Assembly (NCBI RefSeq): GCF_008326305.1
Contig: NZ_BIXY01000010.1
Location: 51,137 to 115,136 of the forward strand
Origin: Dictyobacter arantiisoli
GTDB taxonomy: Bacteria; Chloroflexota; Ktedonobacteria; Ktedonobacterales; Ktedonobacteraceae
Direction of reading: 5' to 3'
Length of the DNA: 64,000 bases
Position numbers and translations under genes: made by a program. The notes under the pieces are model-generated. The model worked only from the letters and a program-made list of their open reading frames with translations. It was not told the DNA's origin and made no database searches. Within the stretch, counting starts at the first letter, position 1, and each line of letters starts with the position of its first letter. Positions 16,084-64,000 of this stretch are shown piece after piece.

Positions 16084-16126
16084 GATCCTATCTCCTCTAT
16101 CATAATCGTAATAGTAAGCGTAGCAA

Positions 16127-16404
16127 CCACCCTTCACGGGCAATACCGCTTCAACAAGAGGAATCTCGACGAATACGGTAGGTGCGTGCCGAGGTCGCAA
16201 CCAAGGTGCGCTTGCCCATTCATCGTACGAGCATCCCGCCCATAGGCCATTCCTACCCCGACACCCATGCCGGAGAACAGTGCAGAGCGTTGGGGTGAGA
16301 GAGTCGTACGCGCAAGGGAGCATTGACCTGCGCTGCGCTCCGTGCAATGCCTACGTTTTGTTCATAATGCTCCGTATTGAAGCGGTATTGCCCGTGAAGG
16401 GTGG
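16127..16404 (+). mobile_element. Full-length MITE-like element (~278 bp) with 28-bp perfect terminal inverted repeats
   Basis: TIR-L ccacccttcacgggcaataccgcttcaa at 16127, TIR-R ttgaagcggtattgcccgtgaagggtgg at 16377. The internal core tgtaggtgcgtgccgaggtcgcaacc...cctacgtttt is shared with copies at 20647 and 57752. Confidence 0.7.
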
Positions 16405-16433
16405 TTACTACGATCTACGATCCTTTCTTTTCG

Positions 16434-20502: not shown

Positions 20503-20635
20503 CCTTGTTAAGCTATGGAACAGCTACTATGATATATACGCCGGGAAGTCTGTATTTGTTCTATCAACCTTCTTGTATATATTCTTTCTGCTATTGCAAA
20601 AACCGGAAAATATATTTGCCAATAGAGAGGAATCA

Positions 20636-20846
20636 TGATGGAGAAATGTAGGTGCGTGCCGAGGTCGCAACCGAGGTGCGCTTTCCCGTGAATCGTACGA
20701 TTCAAGCCCCGAAGCCCTGTATCCATTTCCCTGGGATCGAGAGATGATGGAAGATGTAGGCACGAAGCGCAAGCGCAGGTCCGTGCAATGCCTACGTTTT
20801 TTCTCATACATCCTCTTATTTAAACGGTATTGCCCGTGAAGGGTGG
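20636..20846 (+). repeat. Truncated copy of the MITE-like element: core plus the right TIR only
   Basis: atgatggagaaatgtaggtgcgtgccgaggtcgcaaccgaggtgcgc...cctacgtttttt, then cggtattgcccgtgaagggtgg. No left TIR. Confidence 0.65.
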
Positions 20847-20914
20847 CTACTACGGAGGGACGATGCACGCAACCTCACCGTAAAGGATGAGGTTGCGTGC
20901 ATCGTATGTTGGGG

Positions 20915-22408: not shown

Positions 22409-22505
22409 AAATATCTCCCACTTGCTTTTGTGAAATTTGTAAATTCTAAGAACTATCAAACCATACGTTCACACCTTGTTATTATATCAGAGCTACATCC
22501 CCATC

Positions 22506-22579
22506 GTAGAATCTACCCTTCACGGGCAATACCGCTTCAATAAAGAGAAGCAGTATTGCCCGTGAAGGGTAGATTCTAC
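22506..22579. repeat. Minimal hairpin derivative of the MITE family: the two TIRs abutting with an 18-nt loop
   Basis: gtagaatctacccttcacgggcaatac(cgcttcaataaagagaagcag)tattgcccgtgaagggtagattctac, a perfect ~27-bp stem. Confidence 0.7.
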
Positions 22580-22650
22580 AGGCTATACAAATAGAAACGA
22601 GAGAATAATCAAATGATTATTCTCTCGTTTCTATTTGTATCTATATGCTA

Positions 22651-24647: not shown

Positions 24648-25970
24648 ATGTGTAAGAGGATGCGTTGGTCATGGCTTAGTGTATTTACGCGTGCACCCTT
24701 TGCCCTACGAATAGGAGTTTGTCTCTCAATGTTTCTCGGTAGCGCAATCTTTTACTTTCTCACCTTTGAAAAAATACGCAATAGCTATGTTTTGCTGCTT
24801 CCTATGCTGGTATGCACGGTCGCTTTTCACAAGAAAGGGGCCCTGGTCTGCTTTGTTAGCACATTCACAATTATGTTCTGCCACATGCTTCTCTTCCATA
24901 GCAACCATCCTGACATAAGTATGGTACTAGTAGTCTTTGTGTTTATTCTAAATATACTGGTGCTTGCGGCAGTTGGTATAGGCATGATTTCCTTGCGCAC
25001 AAAATATATAGCATCTCTAGCAGAAACAAAATATATAGCATCTCTAGCAGAAACAAAAGATACAGGCATAACAGGTATAACAGCAGATATAGCAATGACG
25101 CCAGCCGCTATCGAGGCTGAACAGGGTGAACTTGAACGTCAGATGGCTCTGGTTCAGGATCAGTTCCGCCAGTTACAGGAGACACAGGAACAGTTTGTCT
25201 CGAATATGAATCATGAGTTGCGTACCCCACTTACGGCCGTCTATGGATATTTTGGACTGCTTCAATATATCTTTGAGAAAAATGGTACGCTCGAATACGA
25301 ATCTCATGCAAGCTATATGCGCAACGCGGTGCAATATTGTGAAGATCTCTGCTCTATTGTAAACAATATCTTGAAGAATATGGATATCGATCACCAGCAG
25401 CAACCTATCCCAGGCGAGGAATGTTCTCTCGCTCAGATGATACAAGAACTTTGTAGCTCAGGTGACCTGGACACATCCGAACAGCAACGTCTTCAGATTC
25501 AGCTTCCTGCACACGATCTGATGGCTTACACTGATAGCTCATGTCTGCGCCATGTGCTACAACAACTCATCTCAAATGCATTCAAATACACGCCGGAGGC
25601 ATCACCAGTGATGATAAGCGCCACAGCTTATGACGATGCCATGGATTACATCTGCATCAGCGTCACTGATAGAGGTCCTGGCATTCCACCCGCAGAACAG
25701 GATCGTATTTTTGAGCAGTTTGTACGTCTCAAACGCGATATTGCCGGGACAGTACAGGGAGCGGGATTGGGACTGACAACCTGTAAGCATTTAATTGAAA
25801 GTATGCAGGGGAAGATCTGGGTGGAGAGTACAGGAATTATGGGTGAAGGGAGCAGCTTCCGTTTTATCCTGCCACGGACTGCTTCAGTCAGGAAACAGCC
25901 CGTACCAGGCATACAAGATATACAAGGCATACCAGAGATCAACCGCGTGCCCTCTCAGGCACTGCGTTGA
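24648..25970 (+). CDS. Membrane sensor histidine kinase (HisKA + HATPase_c); no cognate regulator adjacent
   Basis: H-box NHELRTPLTAV, G-boxes DRGPGIP and GAGLGLT. 4 TM helices N-terminally. Confidence 0.8.
   Translation: MCKRMRWSWLSVFTRAPFALRIGVCLSMFLGSAIFYFLTFEKIRNSYVLLLPMLVCTVAFHKKGALVCFVSTFTIMFCHMLLFHSNHPDISMVLVVFVFILNILVLAAVGIGMISLRTKYIASLAETKYIASLAETKDTGITGITADIAMTPAAIEAEQGELERQMALVQDQFRQLQETQEQFVSNMNHELRTPLTAVYGYFGLLQYIFEKNGTLEYESHASYMRNAVQYCEDLCSIVNNILKNMDIDHQQQPIPGEECSLAQMIQELCSSGDLDTSEQQRLQIQLPAHDLMAYTDSSCLRHVLQQLISNAFKYTPEASPVMISATAYDDAMDYICISVTDRGPGIPPAEQDRIFEQFVRLKRDIAGTVQGAGLGLTTCKHLIESMQGKIWVESTGIMGEGSSFRFILPRTASVRKQPVPGIQDIQGIPEINRVPSQALR
25002..25055 (+). repeat. Perfect 27-bp tandem duplication inside the kinase gene (encodes KYIASLAET twice)
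   Basis: aaatatatagcatctctagcagaaaca x2. Confidence 0.8.
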
Positions 25971-28334: not shown

Positions 28335-29039
28335 ATGAGCGATCTTATGATACCAGCACCAACTCAACCGCCACCAACGCAGATAGTACCGGCAGCACCT
28401 CAAATAGAGACTCCCAATGAAGAACGGCCAAAGGTTGCGCTGACACCGGCGCGCAGAAGGCCAGGACAAACTCCACTTGCCCGGACGATTAAAGCTATTT
28501 TTCGTCCTGTCTTTAAAATACTCTACTACATCATCAGTTGGATTCGGACCCACAAGCTCGTCTCGTTACTCGCACTGGCACTGTTAATCGGAAGCATCGT
28601 GGCAACATCTTATTTTGTGGGCAATAATGCTCCTCTGGCTTCGCAGGATAGTATGAAAAGCTCGGTCCAGAAAAATACTCAGATCAGTCCTGATGTGCAA
28701 AACTGGTTGCTGGGACTCCGCGATGGCAAGCTGAATACTATGCTTGAAGTTGAGAAGGCGATGAGTACGGTGCATCGCCCACCGGATAGCTCACTTTATG
28801 TGCTGCAATTTAGCGAAAAATACAATCAGGTGAAATGGACCAATGTGAGCGTGACCAGTATCAATGCTGCCCCTGATGGCATGATAGACACATTCATTGA
28901 AACTGATCTTACAGTGACCAGCACAAGTAGTACCAGCACATCAACCGCCCCGACCAGATTAATCGTGCTCTGGCACTTTACCACGTTAGCCAATGGTCAA
29001 ATCTATTTGATCGATTATGTGTCGGCACGGAGCGCATAA
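28335..29039 (+). CDS. Hypothetical membrane-anchored protein (Pro-rich N-terminus, one TM, extracytoplasmic domain)
   Basis: 234-aa ORF with TM LVSLLALALLIGSIVATSYFV. Confidence 0.45.
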   Translation: MSDLMIPAPTQPPPTQIVPAAPQIETPNEERPKVALTPARRRPGQTPLARTIKAIFRPVFKILYYIISWIRTHKLVSLLALALLIGSIVATSYFVGNNAPLASQDSMKSSVQKNTQISPDVQNWLLGLRDGKLNTMLEVEKAMSTVHRPPDSSLYVLQFSEKYNQVKWTNVSVTSINAAPDGMIDTFIETDLTVTSTSSTSTSTAPTRLIVLWHFTTLANGQIYLIDYVSARSA

Positions 29040-29040
29040 C

Positions 29041-29115
29041 AGAACAGAACAGAACAGAACAGAACAGAACAGAACAGAACAGAACAGAACAGAACAGAAC
29101 AGAACAGAACAGAAC
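29041..29115. repeat. Pentanucleotide microsatellite (AGAAC)15
   Basis: 15 perfect tandem units immediately after the stop of the upstream ORF and ~110 bp upstream of the ftsH-like start. Confidence 0.95.
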
Positions 29116-29224
29116 ATCAGAATACGAAAATTGCAACCTCTGATGGCGCTGAAAAACCAATAACTTCATCGCTCACTCTACACATACTCATAGAAGCAGG
29201 CACTATGCAGAAGGGATAGATGCA

Positions 29225-31192
29225 GTGGCAACAAATACAACCAATACAAAACGGCCACGCAGTAGTCTGGATAAGTCAATCGATCTGGGTATGGACCAGT
29301 TTGGCCGCTTCTTACGACGAGCCTGGATCTGGCTTGCCCTGCTCGCGCTGGTTATCTGGTTCTTTGCCTCAGGTACGACGGTGGCAGGTATTGATCCTAT
29401 CACGGCTGTGGGTCTTTTGCTGCAAATTATGTTTGCCATCTTCTTTGTGCTCGTACAATTTATCGCGATTTTCTGGTTTCTAGGAAGACCCCGTCTCTAC
29501 TGGGTGATGCCCGGTGAAACAGGTGTAACCTTCGAGGACTATAAAGGGAATCCAGAGGTGCTTGAGTCGGCACGGCGCATTGTCACGCTACTCCAGGGGG
29601 TCAAAGAATTCCAGCAGATGGGCGGAAATCCTATTCGCGGTTTGCTCCTTTCTGGACCGCCGGGAACCGGGAAGAGCTATCTGGCACAATGTATGAGTAC
29701 TGAGGCCGGGGTACCCTTTGCCTATGCCAGTGCATCCAGTTTTAAAGCTATGTTCATGGGTATGGATGTACTGATGATCAGCAATCTCTATCGCAAAGCA
29801 CGCCGCCTGGCACGCGAATACGGTGGTTGCGTGGTGTTTATGGATGAAATTGATGCAATTGGCACGGCACGCGGCGCAAACGGTCCCACGATGGGCATGG
29901 GCGGTGGCATGATGGGCGGAATGATGGGTGGCGGCACAGGTGGGCTCAATCAGCTCTTGATGGAGATGGACCCACCAAACATCGAGACAGGTTGGTTTAA
30001 GAAGATCCTGCGTACGCTTGGCCTGACGCATGGCCGCGTACAAAACGAGCCGGTTCTGACCGTCGGAGCGACGAACCTGCCTGAAGCCCTCGATCAAGCT
30101 CTACTGCGGCCCGGGCGCTTTGATCGTCAGATCCATATTGCGGCCCCAACTGATAAATATCGTCCCGAAGTGATTGAGTATTATCTCCATAAGATTGAGC
30201 ATGAGCCAGACATCTCTATCAGCGCGCTTTCCGCACGGCTGGTCAACTATACACCGGTCGCCATTAAGCACGTTATCAATGAAGCGACTATCATTGCCCA
30301 CTTTGAAGGCCGTCAAAAGGTTACCTACAAAGATCTGATTGAGGCCCAGGATGTACATGAGTATGGCCTGCGCCAATCGAGCGAACTGACAGAGATTGAA
30401 CGCCGCCGTCTGGCCTATCATGAAGCCGGACACACGGTCGCCAGTTACTATCTGATGGATCGCTACTTCCCGGCCTATGTGACGATCCATATGCGGGGGG
30501 ATGTGGAAGGTGCCGCTGCCTTTGCCCATCCACGACCAAAAGAAACGGTGATCACGCATAACCGGGAAGATATCCTGGCTCGTATACAGGTCTCACTGGC
30601 CTCACGGGCCGCTGAAGAACTCTTCTTGAATACCAAACTCAGTGGTGTGACAGGAGATTTCCAGAGCGCGACACAACAGGCAGCCCTCTATATCGGTGCC
30701 TACGGCATGGATAATACCCTGGCCTCGATTCTGGCAATGCAGAGTACCAATGGAGCCCTCGGCAATATACCACGCTTCTCAGAGCGCGTCGAAAGTTTGC
30801 TTCAATCGCAGCTTAATGCTGTCAAGCAACTCTTCCTTGAACATAGCGAGGCGCTGATCGCGGTCGCCGAAGCACTGATCGAAAAGGACGAGTTAGTCAC
30901 GGAAGAAATCAAAACGTTGATCGATAATGCGGATGCACGGCGCGTGGCGCAGAACCTCTTTGGCGAGCTCACCCCTTTACCGAGTATCGACAGTGGTCAG
31001 AATAGCAACGGCAATAGCGAGCATAATACGAGCAATGGACGTGCACAGGGAACAGGCCATCTGGCTGAACCACATATCCTGAACAATACACTGCCTGATG
31101 GGACACTACAGTTCCCGATGTCCTCGCTGAATGGGTCCGGTTTTATAGAAACATTTGATTATCCAGACAATCCTGAATCACCTGCCCTATAA
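29225..31192 (+). CDS. Divergent FtsH-family AAA+ zinc metalloprotease paralogue
   Basis: Two TM helices with only a short loop between them. Walker A GPPGTGKS, Walker B VVFMDEID, SRH LLRPGRFDRQ, zinc motif HEAGH. GTG start with RBS AAGGGA. A Gly/Met-rich insertion (GMGGGMMGGMMGGG) lies between the Walker B and SRH regions. Confidence 0.8.
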   Translation: MATNTTNTKRPRSSLDKSIDLGMDQFGRFLRRAWIWLALLALVIWFFASGTTVAGIDPITAVGLLLQIMFAIFFVLVQFIAIFWFLGRPRLYWVMPGETGVTFEDYKGNPEVLESARRIVTLLQGVKEFQQMGGNPIRGLLLSGPPGTGKSYLAQCMSTEAGVPFAYASASSFKAMFMGMDVLMISNLYRKARRLAREYGGCVVFMDEIDAIGTARGANGPTMGMGGGMMGGMMGGGTGGLNQLLMEMDPPNIETGWFKKILRTLGLTHGRVQNEPVLTVGATNLPEALDQALLRPGRFDRQIHIAAPTDKYRPEVIEYYLHKIEHEPDISISALSARLVNYTPVAIKHVINEATIIAHFEGRQKVTYKDLIEAQDVHEYGLRQSSELTEIERRRLAYHEAGHTVASYYLMDRYFPAYVTIHMRGDVEGAAAFAHPRPKETVITHNREDILARIQVSLASRAAEELFLNTKLSGVTGDFQSATQQAALYIGAYGMDNTLASILAMQSTNGALGNIPRFSERVESLLQSQLNAVKQLFLEHSEALIAVAEALIEKDELVTEEIKTLIDNADARRVAQNLFGELTPLPSIDSGQNSNGNSEHNTSNGRAQGTGHLAEPHILNNTLPDGTLQFPMSSLNGSGFIETFDYPDNPESPAL

Positions 31193-32974: not shown

Positions 32975-33085
32975 ATGCAAAAGAAGAAAACTTTTAGTAC
33001 GGTAGAATTAGCCCTGGTTGGAGTACTCGTAGGATCACTCCTGCTCTCCTTCCTTCAGGCCCGCCGTGAAGAAAAAAAACAGTGA
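32975..33085 (+). CDS. Candidate small membrane protein (36 aa)
   Basis: MQKKKTFSTVELALVGVLVGSLLLSFLQARREEKKQ. Strong RBS AAGGGGG 7 nt upstream. Immediately followed by a long palindromic terminator. Not in the ORF track (under 60 aa). Confidence 0.35.
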   Translation: MQKKKTFSTVELALVGVLVGSLLLSFLQARREEKKQ

Positions 33086-33135
33086 AGAGAAGAAAAACAG
33101 CTTTCTTGCTGGCAAGAAAGCTGTTTTTCTTCTCT
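33086..33135. terminator. 24-bp perfect palindromic bidirectional terminator
   Basis: agagaagaaaaacagctttcttgc tg gcaagaaagctgtttttcttctct. Confidence 0.65.
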
Positions 33136-33146
33136 TCTGACCCTAT

Positions 33147-36851: not shown

Positions 36852-36879
36852 ATCAAACGGCGTAACAAGAAAAGCTTTT

Positions 36880-36946
36880 GAGACCCAGGTTTATCCGAGA
36901 GGGTGTGCTTCAATGAAGCACATCCTCTCGGATAAACCTGGGTCTC
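36880..36946. terminator. Very long (~32 bp) hairpin terminator between the convergent rpoD and an RSH gene
   Basis: gagacccaggtttatccgagagggtgtgcttc aat gaagcacatcctctcggataaacctgggtctc. Confidence 0.7.
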
Positions 36947-36961
36947 ATTTGTGCCATATGC

Positions 36962-39472
36962 TTATTTACGTTGTCCGAGGTCACGGGCAACGTGGGTAAC
37001 TCCTTTGATGCGCTCCAGTTTGCTAAAGAGTCGATGCAATTGATCGAGATCGTCAATTTCTAATGTCGCCATGATCACGACGGTCTGATGATTGGTGCTG
37101 ACATTAGAATTGATTGACATCAGATTAGCCCCTGCATCAGAGACGACGGTCGCAACATCCCGTATCAAGCCAGTACGATCATTGGCAGTAATGACGACTG
37201 GAGCATTATAGCGCAATGGTCCCATGCCAGCCCAATTGACGTGGATCAGGCGTTCACGATCCTTTTCCCCTAAGCGAGCAACGTTACGACAATCAGAACG
37301 ATGAACGATAACGCCTTTACCTCGACTAATAAAGCCAACAATATTGTCATCTGGCAATGGATAGCAGCAGTTGGCGAGGCGCGTCAAGAGCCCGCTGACA
37401 CCCGCCACCTCTAATTGAGCAACAGCCTGTTTGCTCGGCGTAGCGGCTGGCAGAGAGATGTTTCCTTCAGCCTCCCTCGCATCCTTGTCTTTATCTTTCT
37501 CCCGATGGTCACGCTGCCAGTATTCCTGCAATTTGACAATAACGGCACGTGGTCGGAGATCATCCGCGCCAATAGCAGCCAGAAGATCATCGAATGAGTC
37601 AGCATTCAGACTGCTACAAACCCAATTTTCAGCATCCTCACTAATCGAGGAAGCATCGCGCGTCCCCAGTGCTTTTAACTCGCGCTCCAGACGTTCCTGT
37701 CCAATCTGGATATTGATTGGTCGCTCATTGATTTTAAGATAGCGCCGAATCTTATTACGAGCCGCAGTAGTACGTGCGGAATTTAACCAGTCGCGTGTTG
37801 GATGAGCACTACGGCTGGTCACAATATCGACAATCTCACCGTTTTTTAGCTCATAGTTCAGTGGTACCATACGCGATACCAGACGATCACCGCTTCCATC
37901 CCCATCCGAAGAAATGATACGCGCACCCGAACAATGATCCCCAATCTTCGAGTGGATGCGATACGCAAAGTCCAATGGTGTCGAACCAACCGGTAGATCT
38001 TTGACCTCACCCTTGGGCGTCAAGACAAAGATCTGTTCTTGAAAATAATCATCCTTGACCGCTTCCACAAACTCGGTATCACTGGCATTGGCGATGCGTA
38101 GATCTTGCTGCCATTCCGTCAGTTGACGCAGCCAGGTTAAGAGTTCTTTCGCCGAAGCCGAAGCCGTATCCCCCACATCTTTATAGTGCCAATGCATGGC
38201 GACCCCATATTCGGCTGTCTCATGCATTTCATGGGTGCGAATCTGAATCTCTACCAACTGATCGTCCAGGCAGAAAACAGTGGTATGCAACGCACTATAT
38301 CCATTGGGTTTAGGATTGGCGATAAAATCTTTAATACGTCCTTCCTTGGGACGCCAGAGGCTGTGTACATGCCCCAGGGCCACATAACAGTCTGTAGTGG
38401 TGTCAACCAGGATACGGAATGCCAGCAGGTCATGGATCTGGCTGATATCAAAAACAGCTTTTAAGCGTTCAAAATCAGTATCATCCTCGCCAATGCGCAC
38501 AATCTTTTTATAAAAGCTGTATGGATGCTTGACGCGTCCAGAGATTTCCGCTGTGACACCCAGCGAAGCCATTTCGGACCGCAACCTATCACAGACACGT
38601 TCAACATACGAACGCCACTGCTTTGTTTCCACATCCAGCGTATTGCGTACCCAAATGTAGCGATCAGGTTCGAGAATTTGAAAGGCCAGATCCTGTAGCT
38701 CACTCTCCACCAGAGACATACCCAGACGGCCAGCCAGAGGCGCATAAATCTCACGTGACTCCTCGGCCATCGTCAACATCTCTTGTGGATCGCCATGATA
38801 GTCTTGCTGACACATCAAACGCATAGCATGCAAGCGATATGCGAGCTTCAATAAGACGACGCGAGGATCATCGGCCATCGCCACAAACATCTTGCGGACA
38901 GTTTCGGCCTGCTGGCGACGCATAGCCTCACGTACACGTGGCTTCTTACTTTCTAAAGCAGACAGCGTCCCATCATCATCACGCTCGTTATAGGCTTTCT
39001 TTGACGACGAGAGTTGTGTATTCTGAATTGCCAGTATAGCGCCAGTAGCGGCATTCTGTTTTTTGCGTTCCAGGATATTGAGGCGTAGCATGCTTTCTGC
39101 GATACGTGCTGTAGCTGCTCCCAACACATACTCAACCTGTTCAATCAATAAAAGTTCAGCGTCAACAGCCTCATATACCAGACCAGCAGCGATTCCAATG
39201 GAATCAACATGCATCATCTGTGCCATAATAGTCGTCACAGCCAGTGCATGATCCAGAGGAGCAATTGGACGAGTGGGATTGCCAGGAACATCCTGGCACG
39301 TTTCTCGGGTAAGCTGAAAAGCTTTTACCACATAGTCCACCTCAGCTGGCGTCATATAGTGACGAACCAGCGAGAGTAATTGCATCATCGCAACCGGATA
39401 AGGAGGCTCAGCAAATTGTTGTTCTACAGACCTATCTATCATAATTCTTTTACGGCCATATGACATATCCAA
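36962..39472 (-). CDS. Long RelA/SpoT homologue, RelA-like: synthetase motifs intact, hydrolase HD motifs degenerate
   Basis: Synthetase motifs GRVKHPYSFYKKI, RPKEGRIKD, HTTV, EIQIRT, YGVAMHWHYKD are conserved. The hydrolase region has PLDHALAV...GLVYEAVD in place of HP...LLHDVVED. TGS, Cys-Cys zinc-finger and ACT C-terminal domains are present. Confidence 0.8.
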   Translation of the reverse strand: MDMSYGRKRIMIDRSVEQQFAEPPYPVAMMQLLSLVRHYMTPAEVDYVVKAFQLTRETCQDVPGNPTRPIAPLDHALAVTTIMAQMMHVDSIGIAAGLVYEAVDAELLLIEQVEYVLGAATARIAESMLRLNILERKKQNAATGAILAIQNTQLSSSKKAYNERDDDGTLSALESKKPRVREAMRRQQAETVRKMFVAMADDPRVVLLKLAYRLHAMRLMCQQDYHGDPQEMLTMAEESREIYAPLAGRLGMSLVESELQDLAFQILEPDRYIWVRNTLDVETKQWRSYVERVCDRLRSEMASLGVTAEISGRVKHPYSFYKKIVRIGEDDTDFERLKAVFDISQIHDLLAFRILVDTTTDCYVALGHVHSLWRPKEGRIKDFIANPKPNGYSALHTTVFCLDDQLVEIQIRTHEMHETAEYGVAMHWHYKDVGDTASASAKELLTWLRQLTEWQQDLRIANASDTEFVEAVKDDYFQEQIFVLTPKGEVKDLPVGSTPLDFAYRIHSKIGDHCSGARIISSDGDGSGDRLVSRMVPLNYELKNGEIVDIVTSRSAHPTRDWLNSARTTAARNKIRRYLKINERPINIQIGQERLERELKALGTRDASSISEDAENWVCSSLNADSFDDLLAAIGADDLRPRAVIVKLQEYWQRDHREKDKDKDAREAEGNISLPAATPSKQAVAQLEVAGVSGLLTRLANCCYPLPDDNIVGFISRGKGVIVHRSDCRNVARLGEKDRERLIHVNWAGMGPLRYNAPVVITANDRTGLIRDVATVVSDAGANLMSINSNVSTNHQTVVIMATLEIDDLDQLHRLFSKLERIKGVTHVARDLGQRK

Positions 39473-39770: not shown

Positions 39771-42230
39771 TTATTTTCCTGGTGCGCGCTCAACACTGAC
39801 AACCGTTTTGACCTGGCGCAAACGCCGTAAAATACGCTCCATCTGATCCACAAATGCTCCGGCGTTCGCCGCAATCTCAAGTGTCGCGGTAATCACTGCT
39901 TTCTGCGAAGCAGGATTTGTGGTTGAGGTCACAGATACCATATTGATACCCGCATCGGTTACCACTGCGGCAACATCGCGCAAAAGGCCCGAACGATCAT
40001 GAGCCACCAGCGTAATGGCAACCAGATAGTTCTCGGGATGAATCTGTTGCCAGCTAAATTCGATCAAGTGATTGGCTGTATCTGGATTGCGATGCAATTG
40101 CTCACAATCACAACGATGAATCACAACACCTTGATCACGGGTCATCTGTCCTACAATCGCATCCCCAGGAACGGGACAACAACAGCGGCCCAGTTGCAAG
40201 GGGCTGGCCTTTTCTCCATCTTTATGTGGATAAAAACTATTCTCGTTCTCGTCACTCTCTTCACAGGGTGGAAGTTGCTCCTGTAAAGGAGTAAGGACCT
40301 GTTCGACCTGCACATCTTCGCGGCCCAGAGCCACATAGATATCTTCAAGCATACTGTATTTCTTGGAGAGCAACAATGAACGCGGCTCTTCAATATACAG
40401 TTGATATAACAGGCTTTCAACCAATTCATTTAAGCCGGCCATACCCGCTGTCTTCAAGGCGAAGTCTAACCGTTCACGTCCCAGTTGCAAGTTGATTTCG
40501 CGCTCATACGTTTTAAGATAGCGCCGAATCTTATTGCGGGCCGCCGCCGTACGCGCAAAGGACAGCCAATCCCTGGTCGGGTGAACGGTCCGATTGACCA
40601 TAATCTCGACAATTTCGCCGCCCTTAAGCTCATAATCCAACGGCACCAGACGTGTCACCAGATGTCCACTATCATCAGTATTGGTAATGATGCGTGCACC
40701 AGCGCAATGATCGCCAAGATCAGTGTGAATGCGATAGGCCATATCCAGCGGAGTTGAACCACGCGGCAAATCCTTGACCTCTCCCTGTGGAGTAAACACA
40801 AAGATCTGCTCCTGGAAGATATCACCCTTGACCGCCTCAACGAACTCATCCGCACCTTGTGGCAAGGCACGTTGCCACTCGCGCAATTGCTCAATCCACG
40901 TCATCATCTCGCGATAGGAGAGACGCCAGCTTCCTGGTTTTGCCTCATCATGCTCATTTTGTTCTTTATCGGCGTGCCCCATACGTTCTTTAAGGAACCA
41001 GTAACTGGCGATGCCATAATCCGCAGTACGTTGCATATCATAGGTGCGAATTTGAATTTCAGCCAGACGATTCTCCAGACAAAAGACCGTCGTATGGAGG
41101 GATTGATAGCCATTCAGCTTGGGGGTCGCAATAAAATCCTTAATGCGTCCATCCTTTGGACGCCAGAGGGCATGGATGTGCCCCAGGGCCAGATAACACT
41201 CATAATCCGAGTCCACCAGAATGCGGAAAGAGATCAGATCGTGGATCTGACTCAACTCATTGCCGTTCAGCTGGGCGGGCACATCTTCCAACTTGCGGTT
41301 AATACTGGCGAGATGTTTCTGCCATGCCAGCACATCGGCGTGAATGCCCGCGCGTCTCATCTCATCGCGCAGCACTCGACAGACCTCGGTGATAAATGGC
41401 ATGCGTCGTTTCACCTCTTCAGCCACCTGTTTCGCCAGTTTGACATATTTTTCAGGCTCAAGATAGCCAAAGGACAGATCTTCAAGGTCAGCCTGCACCA
41501 GGGACATCCCCAGGCGACGGGCCAGAGGGGCATAAATCTCACTGGTCTCGCGCGAAGTATTCTGTTGCTGCGCGGTAGACATCGCGCCCAGCGTGCGCAT
41601 ATTATGCAGACGATCAGCCAACTTTACCACCACCACCCGTGGATCTTCAGCCATTGCCAGCAGCATCTTACGCACCGTCTCTGTTCGAATACGGCGTTTA
41701 TCAACCAGCGAAGGAGGAACACCTGCGGTCAGAGTGGCTTGATCCTCAACTGCAGTGCTGGCGCCTTCCTGCCCTGATTTCGCGGGCTTTGTACCGGCGA
41801 GCGTATCAAACTTCGTCACCCCATCCACAATATGGGCTACAGAGGAACCAAATTGCTCACGCAGATCTTCAAGTGAATACTCAGTATCTTCAACTACATC
41901 ATGGAGGAGTGCAGAGACAATACCATCCGCATCGATACGCATTCCAGCAAGCAGTAGGGCTACCTCCAACGGATGTTGAATATAAGGTTCGCCAGAGCGT
42001 CGCAAGGCCCCCTTATGTGCACGATGCGCTAAATCGTAAGCACGCTGAATCTTCTCCATGTCTTCTGGAGTAAGGTATTGCCGTGTCTCAGTTAACAAGT
42101 CCTGGATCGTCATACGCGACTGCGTGACTTTCGCTCCCATAGTCATTGTGGTGCGTACCATAGGAACAATCGCCTGCGTATCACTGGATTTATCGGACTC
42201 ATCAGCAATTTTGTCGAAATTGGTAGCCAT
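39771..42230 (-). CDS. Long RelA/SpoT homologue, SpoT-like: hydrolase HD domain intact, several synthetase motifs diverged
   Basis: Hydrolase HRAHKGALRRSGEPYIQHPLEVA...LLHDVVEDT is intact. The synthetase GRxKHxYSIYxKM motif is replaced by AWQKHLASINRKL and AHWxYKE by ASYWFLKE, while RPKDGRIKD, HTTV and EIQIRT are retained. Confidence 0.8.
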   Translation of the reverse strand: MATNFDKIADESDKSSDTQAIVPMVRTTMTMGAKVTQSRMTIQDLLTETRQYLTPEDMEKIQRAYDLAHRAHKGALRRSGEPYIQHPLEVALLLAGMRIDADGIVSALLHDVVEDTEYSLEDLREQFGSSVAHIVDGVTKFDTLAGTKPAKSGQEGASTAVEDQATLTAGVPPSLVDKRRIRTETVRKMLLAMAEDPRVVVVKLADRLHNMRTLGAMSTAQQQNTSRETSEIYAPLARRLGMSLVQADLEDLSFGYLEPEKYVKLAKQVAEEVKRRMPFITEVCRVLRDEMRRAGIHADVLAWQKHLASINRKLEDVPAQLNGNELSQIHDLISFRILVDSDYECYLALGHIHALWRPKDGRIKDFIATPKLNGYQSLHTTVFCLENRLAEIQIRTYDMQRTADYGIASYWFLKERMGHADKEQNEHDEAKPGSWRLSYREMMTWIEQLREWQRALPQGADEFVEAVKGDIFQEQIFVFTPQGEVKDLPRGSTPLDMAYRIHTDLGDHCAGARIITNTDDSGHLVTRLVPLDYELKGGEIVEIMVNRTVHPTRDWLSFARTAAARNKIRRYLKTYEREINLQLGRERLDFALKTAGMAGLNELVESLLYQLYIEEPRSLLLSKKYSMLEDIYVALGREDVQVEQVLTPLQEQLPPCEESDENENSFYPHKDGEKASPLQLGRCCCPVPGDAIVGQMTRDQGVVIHRCDCEQLHRNPDTANHLIEFSWQQIHPENYLVAITLVAHDRSGLLRDVAAVVTDAGINMVSVTSTTNPASQKAVITATLEIAANAGAFVDQMERILRRLRQVKTVVSVERAPGK

Positions 42231-42660: not shown

Positions 42661-42715
42661 TTTTTCATGTGGGGGCAAAAATGGGCTCTACCCATTTTTG
42701 CCCCCACATGAAAAA
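42661..42715. repeat. 25-bp perfect palindrome with a 5-nt loop
   Basis: tttttcatgtgggggcaaaaatggg ctcta cccatttttgcccccacatgaaaaa. Confidence 0.8.
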
Positions 42716-52704: not shown

Positions 52705-53688
52705 ATGTCACTGGCAATGCAAACCGAAAAAACAGTTGCTGTGGTTGGTATTCGCTTTCGTCCTACGGGCCGTATTTACTACTTTGATCCCGTAGAACAG
52801 GTCTTTTCGAATGGCCAGTACGTCATTGTAGAAACAGTTCGTGGTGTAGAGGCTGGTCGTGTAGTGATTGCCTCAAAGAAACTGGCAGAAGGCGACCTGA
52901 GCGATCCCTTGAAACCAATTCTACATCTGGCGACAGAAGACGAACTGCGGATGATGCTTTCCTTTAAGAGTAAAGAAAAAGAAGCATTGGTTCGCTGCCA
53001 CGAGCGTGTGATGTATCACAAGCTTCCCATGAAGCTTGTTGAGGCTGAATATACGTTCGATGGGAGCCGCCTGACCTTTTACTTTACTGCGGACGAACGT
53101 GTAGATTTTCGGATCCTGGTCCGTGACCTGGCCTCTACGTTCCGTACGCGTATTGAGTTGCGCCAGATTGGTGCACGCGATCAAGCCAAATTGCAAGGCG
53201 GTGTAGGTCCTTGCGGCAAAACCCTCTGTTGTAGTTCTTGGATCACTGACTTTGGAATCGTCTCGATCAAAATGGCAAAAGAACAGGGGCTCCCTCTGAA
53301 TCCCTCCAAAATCTCGGGTGTCTGCGGACGCTTGATGTGCTGTCTCTCGTATGAAAATGACAACTACATTCAGGCCAAACAGCAGATGCCACAAATCGGG
53401 ACCTTTCTAGATACCCCCAGTGGTCGTGGCAAGGTTGTCTCAATCAATGTGCCACAAAATTCCGTTGAAGTCATGCTTGAGAGTGGCGTCACAATTCACA
53501 CCCCGGTTGAAAGTCAACCCGTGAAAGCGGGCGGCTGTAGCGCCAAAGGTGGAAGTTGTGGCTGTAGCGCCAAAGGTGGCGGCTGTGGAAGCGGTGGCTG
53601 TGGCTCCAAAGGTGGCGGCTGTGGAAGCGGTGGCTGTAGTACCAAAGGTGGCGGCGGCTGCGGATCATGTAGTCTGAACAGGAAATAG
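52705..53688 (+). CDS. PSP1 C-terminal domain protein (RicT/YaaT-like) with a Cys/Gly-rich tandem-repeat tail
   Basis: PSP1 core with conserved Cys clusters CGKTLCCSSW and CGRLMCCLSY. The C-terminus is GGCSAKGGSCGCSAKGGGCGSGGCGSKGGGCGSGGC, encoded by DNA tandem repeats at about 53521-53670. Confidence 0.7.
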   Translation: MSLAMQTEKTVAVVGIRFRPTGRIYYFDPVEQVFSNGQYVIVETVRGVEAGRVVIASKKLAEGDLSDPLKPILHLATEDELRMMLSFKSKEKEALVRCHERVMYHKLPMKLVEAEYTFDGSRLTFYFTADERVDFRILVRDLASTFRTRIELRQIGARDQAKLQGGVGPCGKTLCCSSWITDFGIVSIKMAKEQGLPLNPSKISGVCGRLMCCLSYENDNYIQAKQQMPQIGTFLDTPSGRGKVVSINVPQNSVEVMLESGVTIHTPVESQPVKAGGCSAKGGSCGCSAKGGGCGSGGCGSKGGGCGSGGCSTKGGGGCGSCSLNRK

Positions 53689-57345: not shown

Positions 57346-57405
57346 GAAAAACAATGCTGATAACAGTTGCTATGTAAATTCGCAACTATTATCAGCATTG
57401 TTTTT
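57346..57405 (+). terminator. Intrinsic terminator (24-bp stem with a T-run)
   Basis: aaaaacaatgctgataacagttgc tatgtaaattc gcaactattatcagcattgttttttgcc. Confidence 0.7.
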
Positions 57406-57701
57406 TGCCACATTACACTCTAGGATTGAACAGCCTGATTGCTATCAAACTGAACCATTTCCCGATCCCTAGCCTATCAGCAGATGCTCGCATCGTCTCA
57501 TACTGCTCCGGGTCCTTCCTCCTCGCGGCCGCAGGATTGCTTGATGGTCGCCGCGCCACCGCCTATTGGGGATCAGCAGCAGAGATGGTAGCGCGCTTTC
57601 CCAAAGTACACGTTGATCCACAGGTGCTCTACGTCGATGACGGCCAGATACTGACCGCCGCTGTTCCAACGGCGATCAATAAAATAAAAACAACGCTTTA
57701 G
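57405..57701 (+). pseudogene. DJ-1/PfpI-family gene remnant: only the central/C-proximal part, lacking the N-terminus and truncated at its 3' end by a repeat element
   Basis: IVSYCSGSFLLAAAGLLDGRRATAYW...PKVHVDPQVLYVDDGQILTAAV matches the DJ-1/PfpI nucleophile-elbow region. A terminator directly upstream and a MITE-family core directly downstream. Confidence 0.5.
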
Positions 57702-57739
57702 AAAAACCACAAATGCCCAAAAACGGAGGAAATACCCAA

Positions 57740-57930
57740 ATCACGATGGAGAAGTGTAGGTGCGTGCCGAGGCCGCAGCCGAGGTGCGCTTTCCTCGTCT
57801 CGTACCATAATCTTGCCCCAACGCTCGGTGATTTACCCAAACGCGAATATTGGGATATGGATGGGTCTACGGTTGAGTACGATGTACAGGAAGCGGGACT
57901 CACATCCGTTCTTGCCGCACCTACGTTATT
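57740..57930 (+). repeat. Core-only copy of the MITE-family element (no TIRs), closed by a terminal stem gtaggtgcg/cgcacctac plus a T-rich tail
   Basis: atcacgatggagaagtgtaggtgcgtgccgaggccgcagccgaggtgcgctttcc...gccgcacctacgttattt. Confidence 0.6.
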
Positions 57931-57944
57931 TATTTATAATATCG

Positions 57945-63807: not shown

Positions 63808-63900
63808 ATCCTTGCGGTCAATACCGCTTCAATACGAGGAATGAGGACGAAATGCACTCGTCGCAGCCACCCTTCACGGGCAATACCGCTTAAATAGCGA
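63808..63900 (+). repeat. Two tandem partial copies of the MITE-family left terminal repeat, at the window edge
   Basis: gtcaataccgcttcaatacgaggaatgagg ... ccacccttcacgggcaataccgcttaaatagcgag. Confidence 0.6.
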
Positions 63901-64000
63901 GAAGCGGAGGAGATGAATTCTGTAGAGACCGACGAGGAATGGGTTGCAGGAAGTCGGCAAAGGTGGTGTTCTTCAAGGTGATGTTTTGATGCTTTGGTTT

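Follow-up and report, generated by a model that had tools for sequence, protein, structure and literature searches.

We describe a family of small palindromic repeats in a 64,000-nt stretch of the Dictyobacter arantiisoli genome (Ktedonobacteria, Chloroflexota); this whole stretch is called the window below. Its most complete member is a non-coding element of 294 bp with long inverted arms, at positions 16119-16412, and parts of the same element recur at four further intergenic loci, all known copies falling within a 48-kb span inside the window. Four other Dictyobacter genomes with the same gene order lack the element at every comparable site. We consider it rather likely that these sequences form a lineage-specific, modular, non-autonomous palindromic repeat family that has spread by insertion, and we place it in the broad class of miniature inverted-repeat transposable elements (MITEs), hairpin-forming doublets of repetitive extragenic palindromes (REPINs, built from REPs) and bacterial interspersed mosaic elements (BIMEs).

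The complete element and its arms

The sequence CCACCCTTCACGGGCAATACCGCTTCAA stands at 16127-16154 on the + strand, and its exact reverse complement is found at 16377-16404. This perfect 28-bp terminal inverted repeat, matching at 28/28 positions, had been noticed in the original prediction, which took it to bound a full-length element of ~278 bp; the perfect repeat stands, but the arms are in fact ~64 nt long and the element measures 294 bp. A repeat search puts the inverted repeat at 59 nt per arm with 80% complementarity (16119-16177 / 16354-16412), and the arms extend ~5 nt further through GTAGG (16178-16182) and CCTAC (16350-16354). The outer 36 nt of the arms contain one mismatch (35/36), the 28-nt repeat none. 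Both arms are bounded by GTAG/CTAC, on the outside at 16120-16123 / 16408-16411 and on the inside at 16178-16181 / 16351-16354. At the outer end of the right arm there is also an exact 7-nt tandem, CTACGAT CTACGAT (16408-16421), which copies the arm tip including the CTAC tag. As single-stranded DNA, the whole element adopts a single long hairpin fold (-73 kcal/mol, z = -7.3).

The loci, with the names used here, are as follows.

16119-16412, + strand: c1, the complete copy, with left arm, head of ~170 nt and right arm (294 bp; inverted-repeat search)
16119-16182, + strand: c1 left arm, with GTAG (16120-16123), 28-nt repeat (16127-16154), linker (16155-16177) and GTAG(G) (16178-16182)
16350-16412, - strand: c1 right arm, with CCTAC (16350-16354), linker, 28-nt repeat (16377-16404) and CTAC (16408-16411)
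20621-20854, + strand: c2, linker, head and right arm, the outer left arm missing (profile and repeat searches); its parts are GTAG at 20648, CCTAC at 20791-20795, the 28-nt repeat at 20819-20846 (-) and the outer CTAC at 20850-20853
22506-22579, no strand assigned: hp, arms only, with 33-nt arms, an 8-nt loop and GTAG...CTAC tips (inverted-repeat search)
57739-57935, + strand: c3, head only, no arms, from GTAGG at 57756 to CCTAC at 57920-57924
63815-63857, + strand: c4a, a 5'-truncated left arm plus linker, first of two tandem arms (repeat and profile searches)
63858-64000, + strand, cut by the window end: c4b, the second tandem arm, a full left arm followed by a different stem-loop (profile search); its parts, all +, are GTCG (63860-63863), the repeat (63867-63894), a linker and GTAG (63922-63925)

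At up to three mismatches, the 28-mer arm occurs five times in the window, compared with no occurrence in 100 dinucleotide-preserving shuffles; outside c1, these matches carry one or two mismatches and lie at 20819-20846 (-), 22513-22540 (+) and 63867-63894 (+). An nhmmer profile of the arm (query sequence CGTAGNANCCACCCTTCACGGGCAATACCGCTTCAATA), run over the window, finds six full arms and one partial arm, 6.5 arms in all:

16118-16164, + strand: c1 left arm
16367-16413, - strand: c1 right arm
20809-20855, - strand: c2 right arm
22504-22550, + strand: hp left arm
22535-22580, - strand: hp right arm
63858-63904, + strand: c4b arm
63815-63841, + strand: c4a partial arm (E = 3.6e-5)

Across the five separate loci the arms are 86-100% identical. 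The outer (C)GTAG is present in five of the six aligned arms, and the three nucleotides that come next vary (caa, taa, tag, aat, aat, cag); they are followed by CCACCCTTCACGGGCAATAC, which is invariant in the six-arm alignment. In c4, GTCG, which is the second arm's outer tag, occupies the expected place of the first arm's inner GTAG. Together with the head profile described below, these matches, of which none is expected by chance, bear out the earlier claim of four further related loci in the window.

Genomic context of the copies

All five loci are intergenic by Pfam annotation and open reading frame (ORF) maps, as had been proposed; the Pfam annotation took in the longest non-overlapping ORFs of the window, a handful of ORFs lying outside the scan. 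Nine ORFs overlap the elements, and none of them has a match in a collection of 15 billion proteins, in which the adjacent QueD (WP_149400478.1) is present. QueD, PurH and the aldehyde dehydrogenase encoded in the window show 100% identity to D. arantiisoli proteins. The element is small (294 bp) and without coding capacity, and the ORFs that can be drawn across it differ between copies.

The complete copy sits between the stop codon of a short-chain dehydrogenase/reductase (SDR) gene (16434, -) and the start of the QueD/PTPS gene (16083, -). Copy c2 is 7 nt away from the terminator palindrome of an aldehyde dehydrogenase gene (20862-20905), and hp 5 nt away from another terminator palindrome (22585-22640). 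Copy c3 lies between a truncated DJ-1/PfpI gene fragment (57405-57701) and the stop codon of purH (57945), and c4a starts 25 nt past the stop codon of the citrate synthase gene (63790). A candidate decayed right arm of c3 across the purH stop was rejected: the sequence represents the conserved C-terminal codons of PurH (HFRH*), which are present in a relative as well.

Long unique perfect palindromes with arms of 24-43 nt are the usual terminators in the genus, and c2, hp, c3 and c4 are found next to such terminators or instead of them. In the window, such unique palindromes, perfect or nearly so and with arms of 25-34 nt, are found in the spacers at 22585-22640, 33084-33137, 36879-36947, 42661-42715 and 57346-57410. 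Several of them come just past gene ends and are probably bidirectional terminators; a relative has the same arrangement, with arms of up to 43 nt.

The DJ-1/PfpI fragment matches only positions 93-156 of the 165 in the family profile. On one side it is bordered by the terminator of a conserved gene for a 130-aa membrane protein and on the other by c3, and two congeners have no such fragment in this spacer; c3 may therefore have arrived together with flanking DNA.

The arms-only copy hp is a hairpin of unusual stability as DNA (-36.5/-38.9 kcal/mol, z = -15). Its junction reads AAGAG|GAAGC, with a GAA microhomology to the full copy. Long palindromes are unstable, and judging from the junction hp is probably, and most simply, a full copy that would have lost its centre by deletion of such an unstable palindrome.

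The orthologous spacers in related species

The syntenic loci of relatives, 125 kb in total, came from Dictyobacter sp. S3.2.2.5 (L003, L047), D. alpinus (L048, L050), D. vulcani (L049) and a metagenomic relative (L045). Gene order is kept in these relatives, both for the aldehyde dehydrogenase, esterase, PatA_N, SDR, PTPS and glycosyltransferase (GT) genes and for the segment from purH to the citrate synthase gene. Neither the arm nor the head nhmmer profile has a match at E <= 1 in this DNA. The lengths of the spacers compare as follows.

SDR-PTPS: 350 nt in the window (35 + 294 for c1 + 21); 64 (L045), 250, 355 and 532 nt in relatives
Aldehyde dehydrogenase-esterase: 412 nt in the window; 189, 195 and 191 nt in relatives, 351 nt in L045
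After purH: 243 nt plus the truncated DJ-1/PfpI fragment in the window; 95 and 203 nt in relatives, with a plain terminator palindrome
After the citrate synthase gene: at least 210 nt in the window; 91 and 88 nt in relatives, with the terminator palindrome only

In the aldehyde dehydrogenase-esterase spacer, ~125 nt on the promoter side can be aligned in all four species. The window has ~220 nt more, which is exactly c2, lying between the aligned promoter-side block and the aldehyde dehydrogenase terminator. After purH, the relatives are without the DJ-1 fragment, and the neighbouring gene for the 130-aa membrane protein is orthologous (86% identity). As the family is absent from the congeners and the spacer lengths agree with insertion, we regard it as lineage-specific and inserted-looking rather than as a conserved structural RNA or operator. 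The possibility that the copies lie at orthologous positions in relatives, which would have spoken for such a conserved site, is thus contradicted by all four congeners. Since protein identity to the nearest relatives is only ~77-84%, these empty sites compare species and not strains, and most of the spacers are unalignable.

In S3.2.2.5, the SDR-PTPS spacer of 532 nt twice carries a palindromic repeat of another kind, TGTGTTGGYGCRRCAGGGGYGC... (L003 15874-15926 and 16089-16141), which is unrelated to the family in the window and shows compensatory differences between its copies. Sister species thus fill the same spacers with different palindromic repeats, and we conclude that these spacers turn over quickly.

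The head: conserved ends around unrelated middles

A profile of the 5' block of the head (query sequence TGTAGGTGCGTGCCGAGGYCGCARCCRAGGTGCGCTTTCC) finds exactly three copies in the window, all on the + strand (16151-16232, 20620-20701 and 57730-57809), with none expected by chance. The uniform + orientation agrees with the original prediction, which had further described a repeated core of ~220 bp; this last point does not hold, as the three copies have in common only a 5' block of ~56 nt and a short 3' block. In register, the 5' blocks lie at 16161-16216, 20631-20686 and 57739-57794 (all +), and pairwise they are identical at 46/57, 46/57 and 52/56 positions (81-93%). The 3' block of ~20 nt, CCGTGCAATGCCTACGTTTT, is identical in c1 and c2, while c3 retains only CCTACGTT. 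GTAGG/CCTAC bounds all three heads. The middles, 75-105 nt long, align no better than shuffled sequence and are not homologous among the three copies. We tried the idea that they are captured nearby DNA and rejected it, as blastn and tblastx find no match to them in the window or in the relatives' 125 kb. Kinship among the copies is of a mosaic kind, with the 5' end of c2 closest to that of c3 (52/56) and its 3' block identical to that of c1.

The 5' block contains an interrupted hairpin:

16184-16211, + strand: c1 hairpin, GCGTGCC-GA-GGT-CGCA-ACC-AA-GGTGCGC, with GTAG-GT just upstream
20654-20681, + strand: the same hairpin in c2
57762-57789, + strand: the same hairpin in c3

In all three copies the form is GTAG-GT, GCGUGCC-GA-GGY-CGCA-RCC-RA-GGUGCGC, TTT, that is, a layout of GTAG-GT-(7 bp)-GA-(3 bp)-CGCA-(3 bp)-RA-(7 bp)-TTT. 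Its 10 pairs are kept throughout (30/30 pair-cells across the three copies), with one compensatory change from U-A to C-G in c3 and two invariant G-U wobbles. Given these two invariant G-U pairs, the hairpin forms on the + strand only. We also asked if the head is a diverged inverted dimer, its left half being the right half reversed, and rejected this since the local alignment is no better than for shuffles; the global positional scores (most z 0.6-2.7, one 4.4) are suggestive only.

Could the heads be kept by selection as RNA? In such a functional RNA family, each head would represent either a small RNA paralogous to the others or an mRNA structure acting in cis, and the arms would serve as hairpins for processing, stability or termination. 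A variable middle flanked by a conserved 5' block and 3' end does resemble some paralogous small RNAs, the head hairpin has its conserved + strand-only G-U pairs and its compensatory change, and the copies occupy sites where relatives have terminators. The original prediction had likewise thought a small-RNA function conceivable, with every core ending in a stem and T-tract. This holds for c2, with a convincing hairpin and T-run at its end (z = -3.3), whereas the 3' ends of the c1 and c3 heads fold no better than shuffles. A terminator scan calls no terminator at any head, and no promoter or terminator pattern is common to the copies. Rfam 15 gives no gathering-level match in the window; even at E <= 1, only generic long-hairpin (miRNA-type) chance matches to hp appear, and none on the heads. 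Relative to the flanking genes, c1 and c2 have their heads in antisense and c3 and c4 in sense orientation, which means that there is no consistent link to transcription, and the head hairpin itself is not unusually stable. Because four congeners are without the element at the same sites and across 125 kb, it does not serve a conserved function of these loci. A small-RNA function thus receives little support, and we regard an RNA family as quite improbable.

Nor do we think that the head is a coding sequence for a small cysteine-rich peptide (MMEKCRCVPRSQPRCAFP in c2; an ORF of 69-80 aa in c3). Across the conserved block, all three copies do keep one common frame open; an ATG and a good Shine-Dalgarno sequence are present in c2, and two of the three differences between c2 and c3 in the block are synonymous. 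However, there is no start codon in c1 near the block, the ORFs stop at different points and their tails are unrelated; no such peptide is found in the 15-billion-protein collection, and a chimeric six-frame query returns nothing at E <= 10. We have rejected this reading, which is hardly credible, on the grounds of the lacking start codon in c1 and the unrelated tails.

Searches beyond the window

In a collection with one genome per species, the arm 20-mer ACCCTTCACGGGCAATACYG has two matches, both of them chance matches inside coding sequence. An 18-mer of the arm has no match in viral contigs, and an 18-base head motif has one chance match there. A head 21-mer gives 40 matches in metagenomes; since the neighbouring GTAGG and the hairpin's second half are missing from every one of them, we take them to be chance or coding matches. 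Plasmids and phages, searched by blastn with the full element, give no match.

A rival reading is a local origin, with the copies as non-mobile duplicates that arose when long terminator palindromes recombined or underwent template switching or gene conversion with one another. In its favour, terminators in the genus normally are long perfect palindromes (24-43-nt arms), and the copies adjoin or replace them; none of the known copies lies outside a 48-kb span, their relationships are mosaic (c2 nearest to c3 at its 5' end, identical to c1 in its 3' block), and no further copies appear in the one-genome-per-species collection, which matters here if the D. arantiisoli genome is included in it. 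Yet the other terminator palindromes are unique sequences that form no family, and c1 is located in an operon spacer which needs no terminator and is only 64 nt long in a relative. Arms that are 86-100% identical at five separate loci would require a copying mechanism in any case. Local duplication of this kind therefore appears very unlikely to us.

Probable mode of spread

We return to a mobile, non-autonomous repeat family as the favoured explanation. According to this explanation, the element would have inserted into spacers of housekeeping operons, often right beside an existing terminator hairpin, and the four loci other than c1 would be variants of the same modules: a head with one arm, a head alone, arms alone, and tandem arms. 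The arms and the two head ends are likely to be cis-acting, because only those parts are conserved; they would be recognised in trans by an enzyme encoded elsewhere.

Which type of enzyme this might be is a matter of the boundaries. Neither c1 nor hp is flanked by a target-site duplication: the c1 flanks (...AATAGTAAG | element | ATCTACGAT...) have no direct repeat in common, and the same is true for the hp flanks (...CCCCATC | element | AGGCTAT...). The proposal of a transposon-like element thus survives in part, in that a small non-coding inverted-repeat element is real and its spacers look like insertions, but without the target-site duplication that had been suggested as a check. The search for an autonomous partner, also suggested, yielded none within the window among the ORFs scanned.

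In a classical MITE, the element would be a deleted derivative of an insertion sequence (IS) with a DDE transposase, moved by cut-and-paste via its terminal inverted repeats. The perfect 28-nt repeats, the small size, the lack of an ORF and the several intergenic copies all point in this direction, and ktedonobacterial genomes do carry DDE insertion sequences. One case is found in the syntenic region of D. alpinus, where a gene for an IS4-type DDE transposase lies between the esterase and PatA_N genes (L048 13527-14987); it has no similarity to the arm motif, which is equally unmatched in all else that was scanned. We disfavour a DDE-driven MITE because there is no duplication at c1 or hp, because copies with one arm or no arm keep the conserved head ends, with c2 looking like a clean insertion of ~220 nt that has no left terminal repeat, and because the interiors are non-homologous, unlike those in copies of one master element. 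We therefore judge this route unlikely.

A single-strand route by an HUH/Y1 enzyme (RAYT or IS200 type; RAYT stands for a tyrosine transposase associated with REPs) is in our view somewhat likelier than DDE cut-and-paste, since there is no duplication, GTAG/CTAC is found at the boundaries and the heads are co-oriented on one replichore. The last point rests on GC skew, which is negative in 15 of the 16 4-kb bins, for which reason the region most likely lies within one replichore; all four heads (c1-c4) are on the + strand. We infer an HUH/Y1 enzyme from the GTAG/CTAC boundaries, the head start that resembles GTAG-tagged REPs, the literature precedents given below, and the strand-specific hairpin together with the uniform orientation. 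Each of these arguments taken singly is weak, and we put the route forward as tentative.

More speculatively, the GTAG/CTAC tags could be the cleavage and joining sites of a RAYT-like or TIRYT-like HUH/Y1 enzyme, and the family a REPIN-like population of modular replicators in Ktedonobacteria. Arm and head modules would then be excised and rejoined at GTAG, the head interiors would be exchangeable, and insertion would be aimed at terminator hairpins. We hold this idea to be doubtful. To our knowledge, the REP/RAYT system has barely been described in the phylum of the Ktedonobacteria; if true, the idea would extend it to another phylum, add a cargo-carrying variant, and provide a handy model for the assembly of mosaic repeats by HUH enzymes.

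Several observations weigh against a mobile family or against its spread by a single-strand route. No transposase, integrase or Y1/HUH protein is found by Pfam among the scanned ORFs of the 64-kb window, where housekeeping genes are seen. If the one-genome-per-species collection includes the rest of the D. arantiisoli genome, the family is confined to 48 kb, which is odd for a transposon. Copy c3 adjoins a gene fragment and is not a clean insertion, and the empty sites are, as said, a comparison at the species level. Four heads in one orientation have a probability of ~1 in 8 by chance. Covariation in the head hairpin is not significant, as 156 of 500 shuffles reach it (n = 3 sequences), and its stability is no better than that of shuffles (z -0.7 to -1.2). 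The GTAG argument, finally, draws on six arms and three to four heads of common ancestry.

For the host, likely side effects are a hairpin of ~35 contiguous bp (up to 64 imperfect) within the transcript of the SDR-queD-GT operon, and hairpins next to the terminators of the aldehyde dehydrogenase, purH and citrate synthase genes; such long hairpins could affect mRNA processing or DNA stability of the neighbouring housekeeping operons. For annotation, the elements account for several over-long spacers. Mobile DNA of Ktedonobacteria is, as far as we know, poorly described, and the finding adds a new species-restricted small repeat family, with little general consequence.

Other features of the window

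A perfect (AACAG) x 15.8 microsatellite at 29038-29116 occupies the spacer upstream of a gene for an FtsH-like AAA protease (29225-31192) and is possibly slippage-prone. Two genes contain in-frame or coding tandem repeats: at 24999-25062, a 27-nt in-frame duplication (2.4 copies, 97% identical) repeats the peptide TKYIASLAE in a histidine-kinase ORF (24648-25970), and at 53549-53655, a 36-nt repeat (x 3, 90% identical) at the 3' end of a PSP1-domain gene (52705-53688) encodes a Gly/Cys/Ser-rich repeat. Two full-length genes of the RelA/SpoT family lie in tandem on the - strand (36962-39472 and 39771-42230), with ~70% DNA identity in parts.

Comparison with known repeat families

Bacterial MITEs such as Correia/NEMIS of Neisseria, RUP of Streptococcus pneumoniae and Nezha of cyanobacteria are, like the D. 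arantiisoli element, shorter than 300 bp and non-coding with long terminal inverted repeats; they have multiple intergenic, species-specific copies, form a long DNA or RNA hairpin and are often found near gene ends. The D. arantiisoli family differs in that it has no target-site duplication (c1, hp) and no known partner IS, and in that variants missing one or both terminal repeats keep the internal ends, with non-homologous interiors. Where MITE copies are dispersed and near-uniform, we find five loci within 48 kb that are structurally heterogeneous and have unrelated interiors.

REP/REPIN-RAYT systems have tens to hundreds of extragenic copies per genome and a RAYT (Y1/HUH) gene that is present once and has the same repeats on its flanks. 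In the D. arantiisoli family, as in REPs and REPINs (GTAG REPs, TIRtron/TIRYT), GTAG/CTAC is found at module ends; the start of the head, with GTAG, GT, an interrupted stem-loop and a 3-nt T tail, may correspond to that of GTAG-tagged REPs. Inverted doublets folding into a hairpin are represented by hp (z = -15) and the whole of c1 (z = -7.3); further likenesses are the absence of target duplication, the extragenic position downstream of genes and the modular, clustered arrangement. On the other hand, the D. arantiisoli arms, at ~64 nt, far exceed a REP in length and are not palindromic in themselves, a stretch of 110-130 nt with variable sequence separates the two stem-loops of the head, the scanned ORFs of the 64-kb window include no RAYT gene, and the head stem-loop is not unusually stable. 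Precedents in the literature include REP/REPIN elements with RAYT (TnpA-REP) transposases (Bertels & Rainey 2011, PMC3116915), as well as REP dimers nested in long palindromes and families with terminal inverted repeats tied to Y1 transposases (Di Nocera et al. 2013, PMC3733652). GTAG-tagged REPs have the shape GTAG, GW, stem-loop and 3-nt tail (PMC3733652).

The use of a few modules (arm, linker and head ends) that are variously combined, partial or in tandem, and located between genes, recalls the BIMEs of E. coli and BOX of S. pneumoniae. There is no sequence similarity to these, however, and the D. arantiisoli modules are longer. Palindrome-associated transposable elements (PATEs) and non-autonomous IS200-IS605 derivatives likewise have conserved hairpin ends, unrelated interiors and no terminal duplication, together with a strand-specific hairpin and a uniform orientation on one replichore. 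The ends of IS200/IS605 elements are not inverted repeats, whereas the D. arantiisoli element has long ones; moreover, no TnpA, TnpB or IscB is encoded nearby and no conserved target tetranucleotide adjoins the copies. The IS200/IS605 family has reportedly been found in Ktedonobacter, in papers on IscB/TnpB.

Because the target duplication of classical MITEs is missing, we assign the family to the broad class and not to a named family. With no sequence relatives in the collections searched, it is best described as a new, species-specific member of the MITE / REPIN / BIME class that stands outside any named family.

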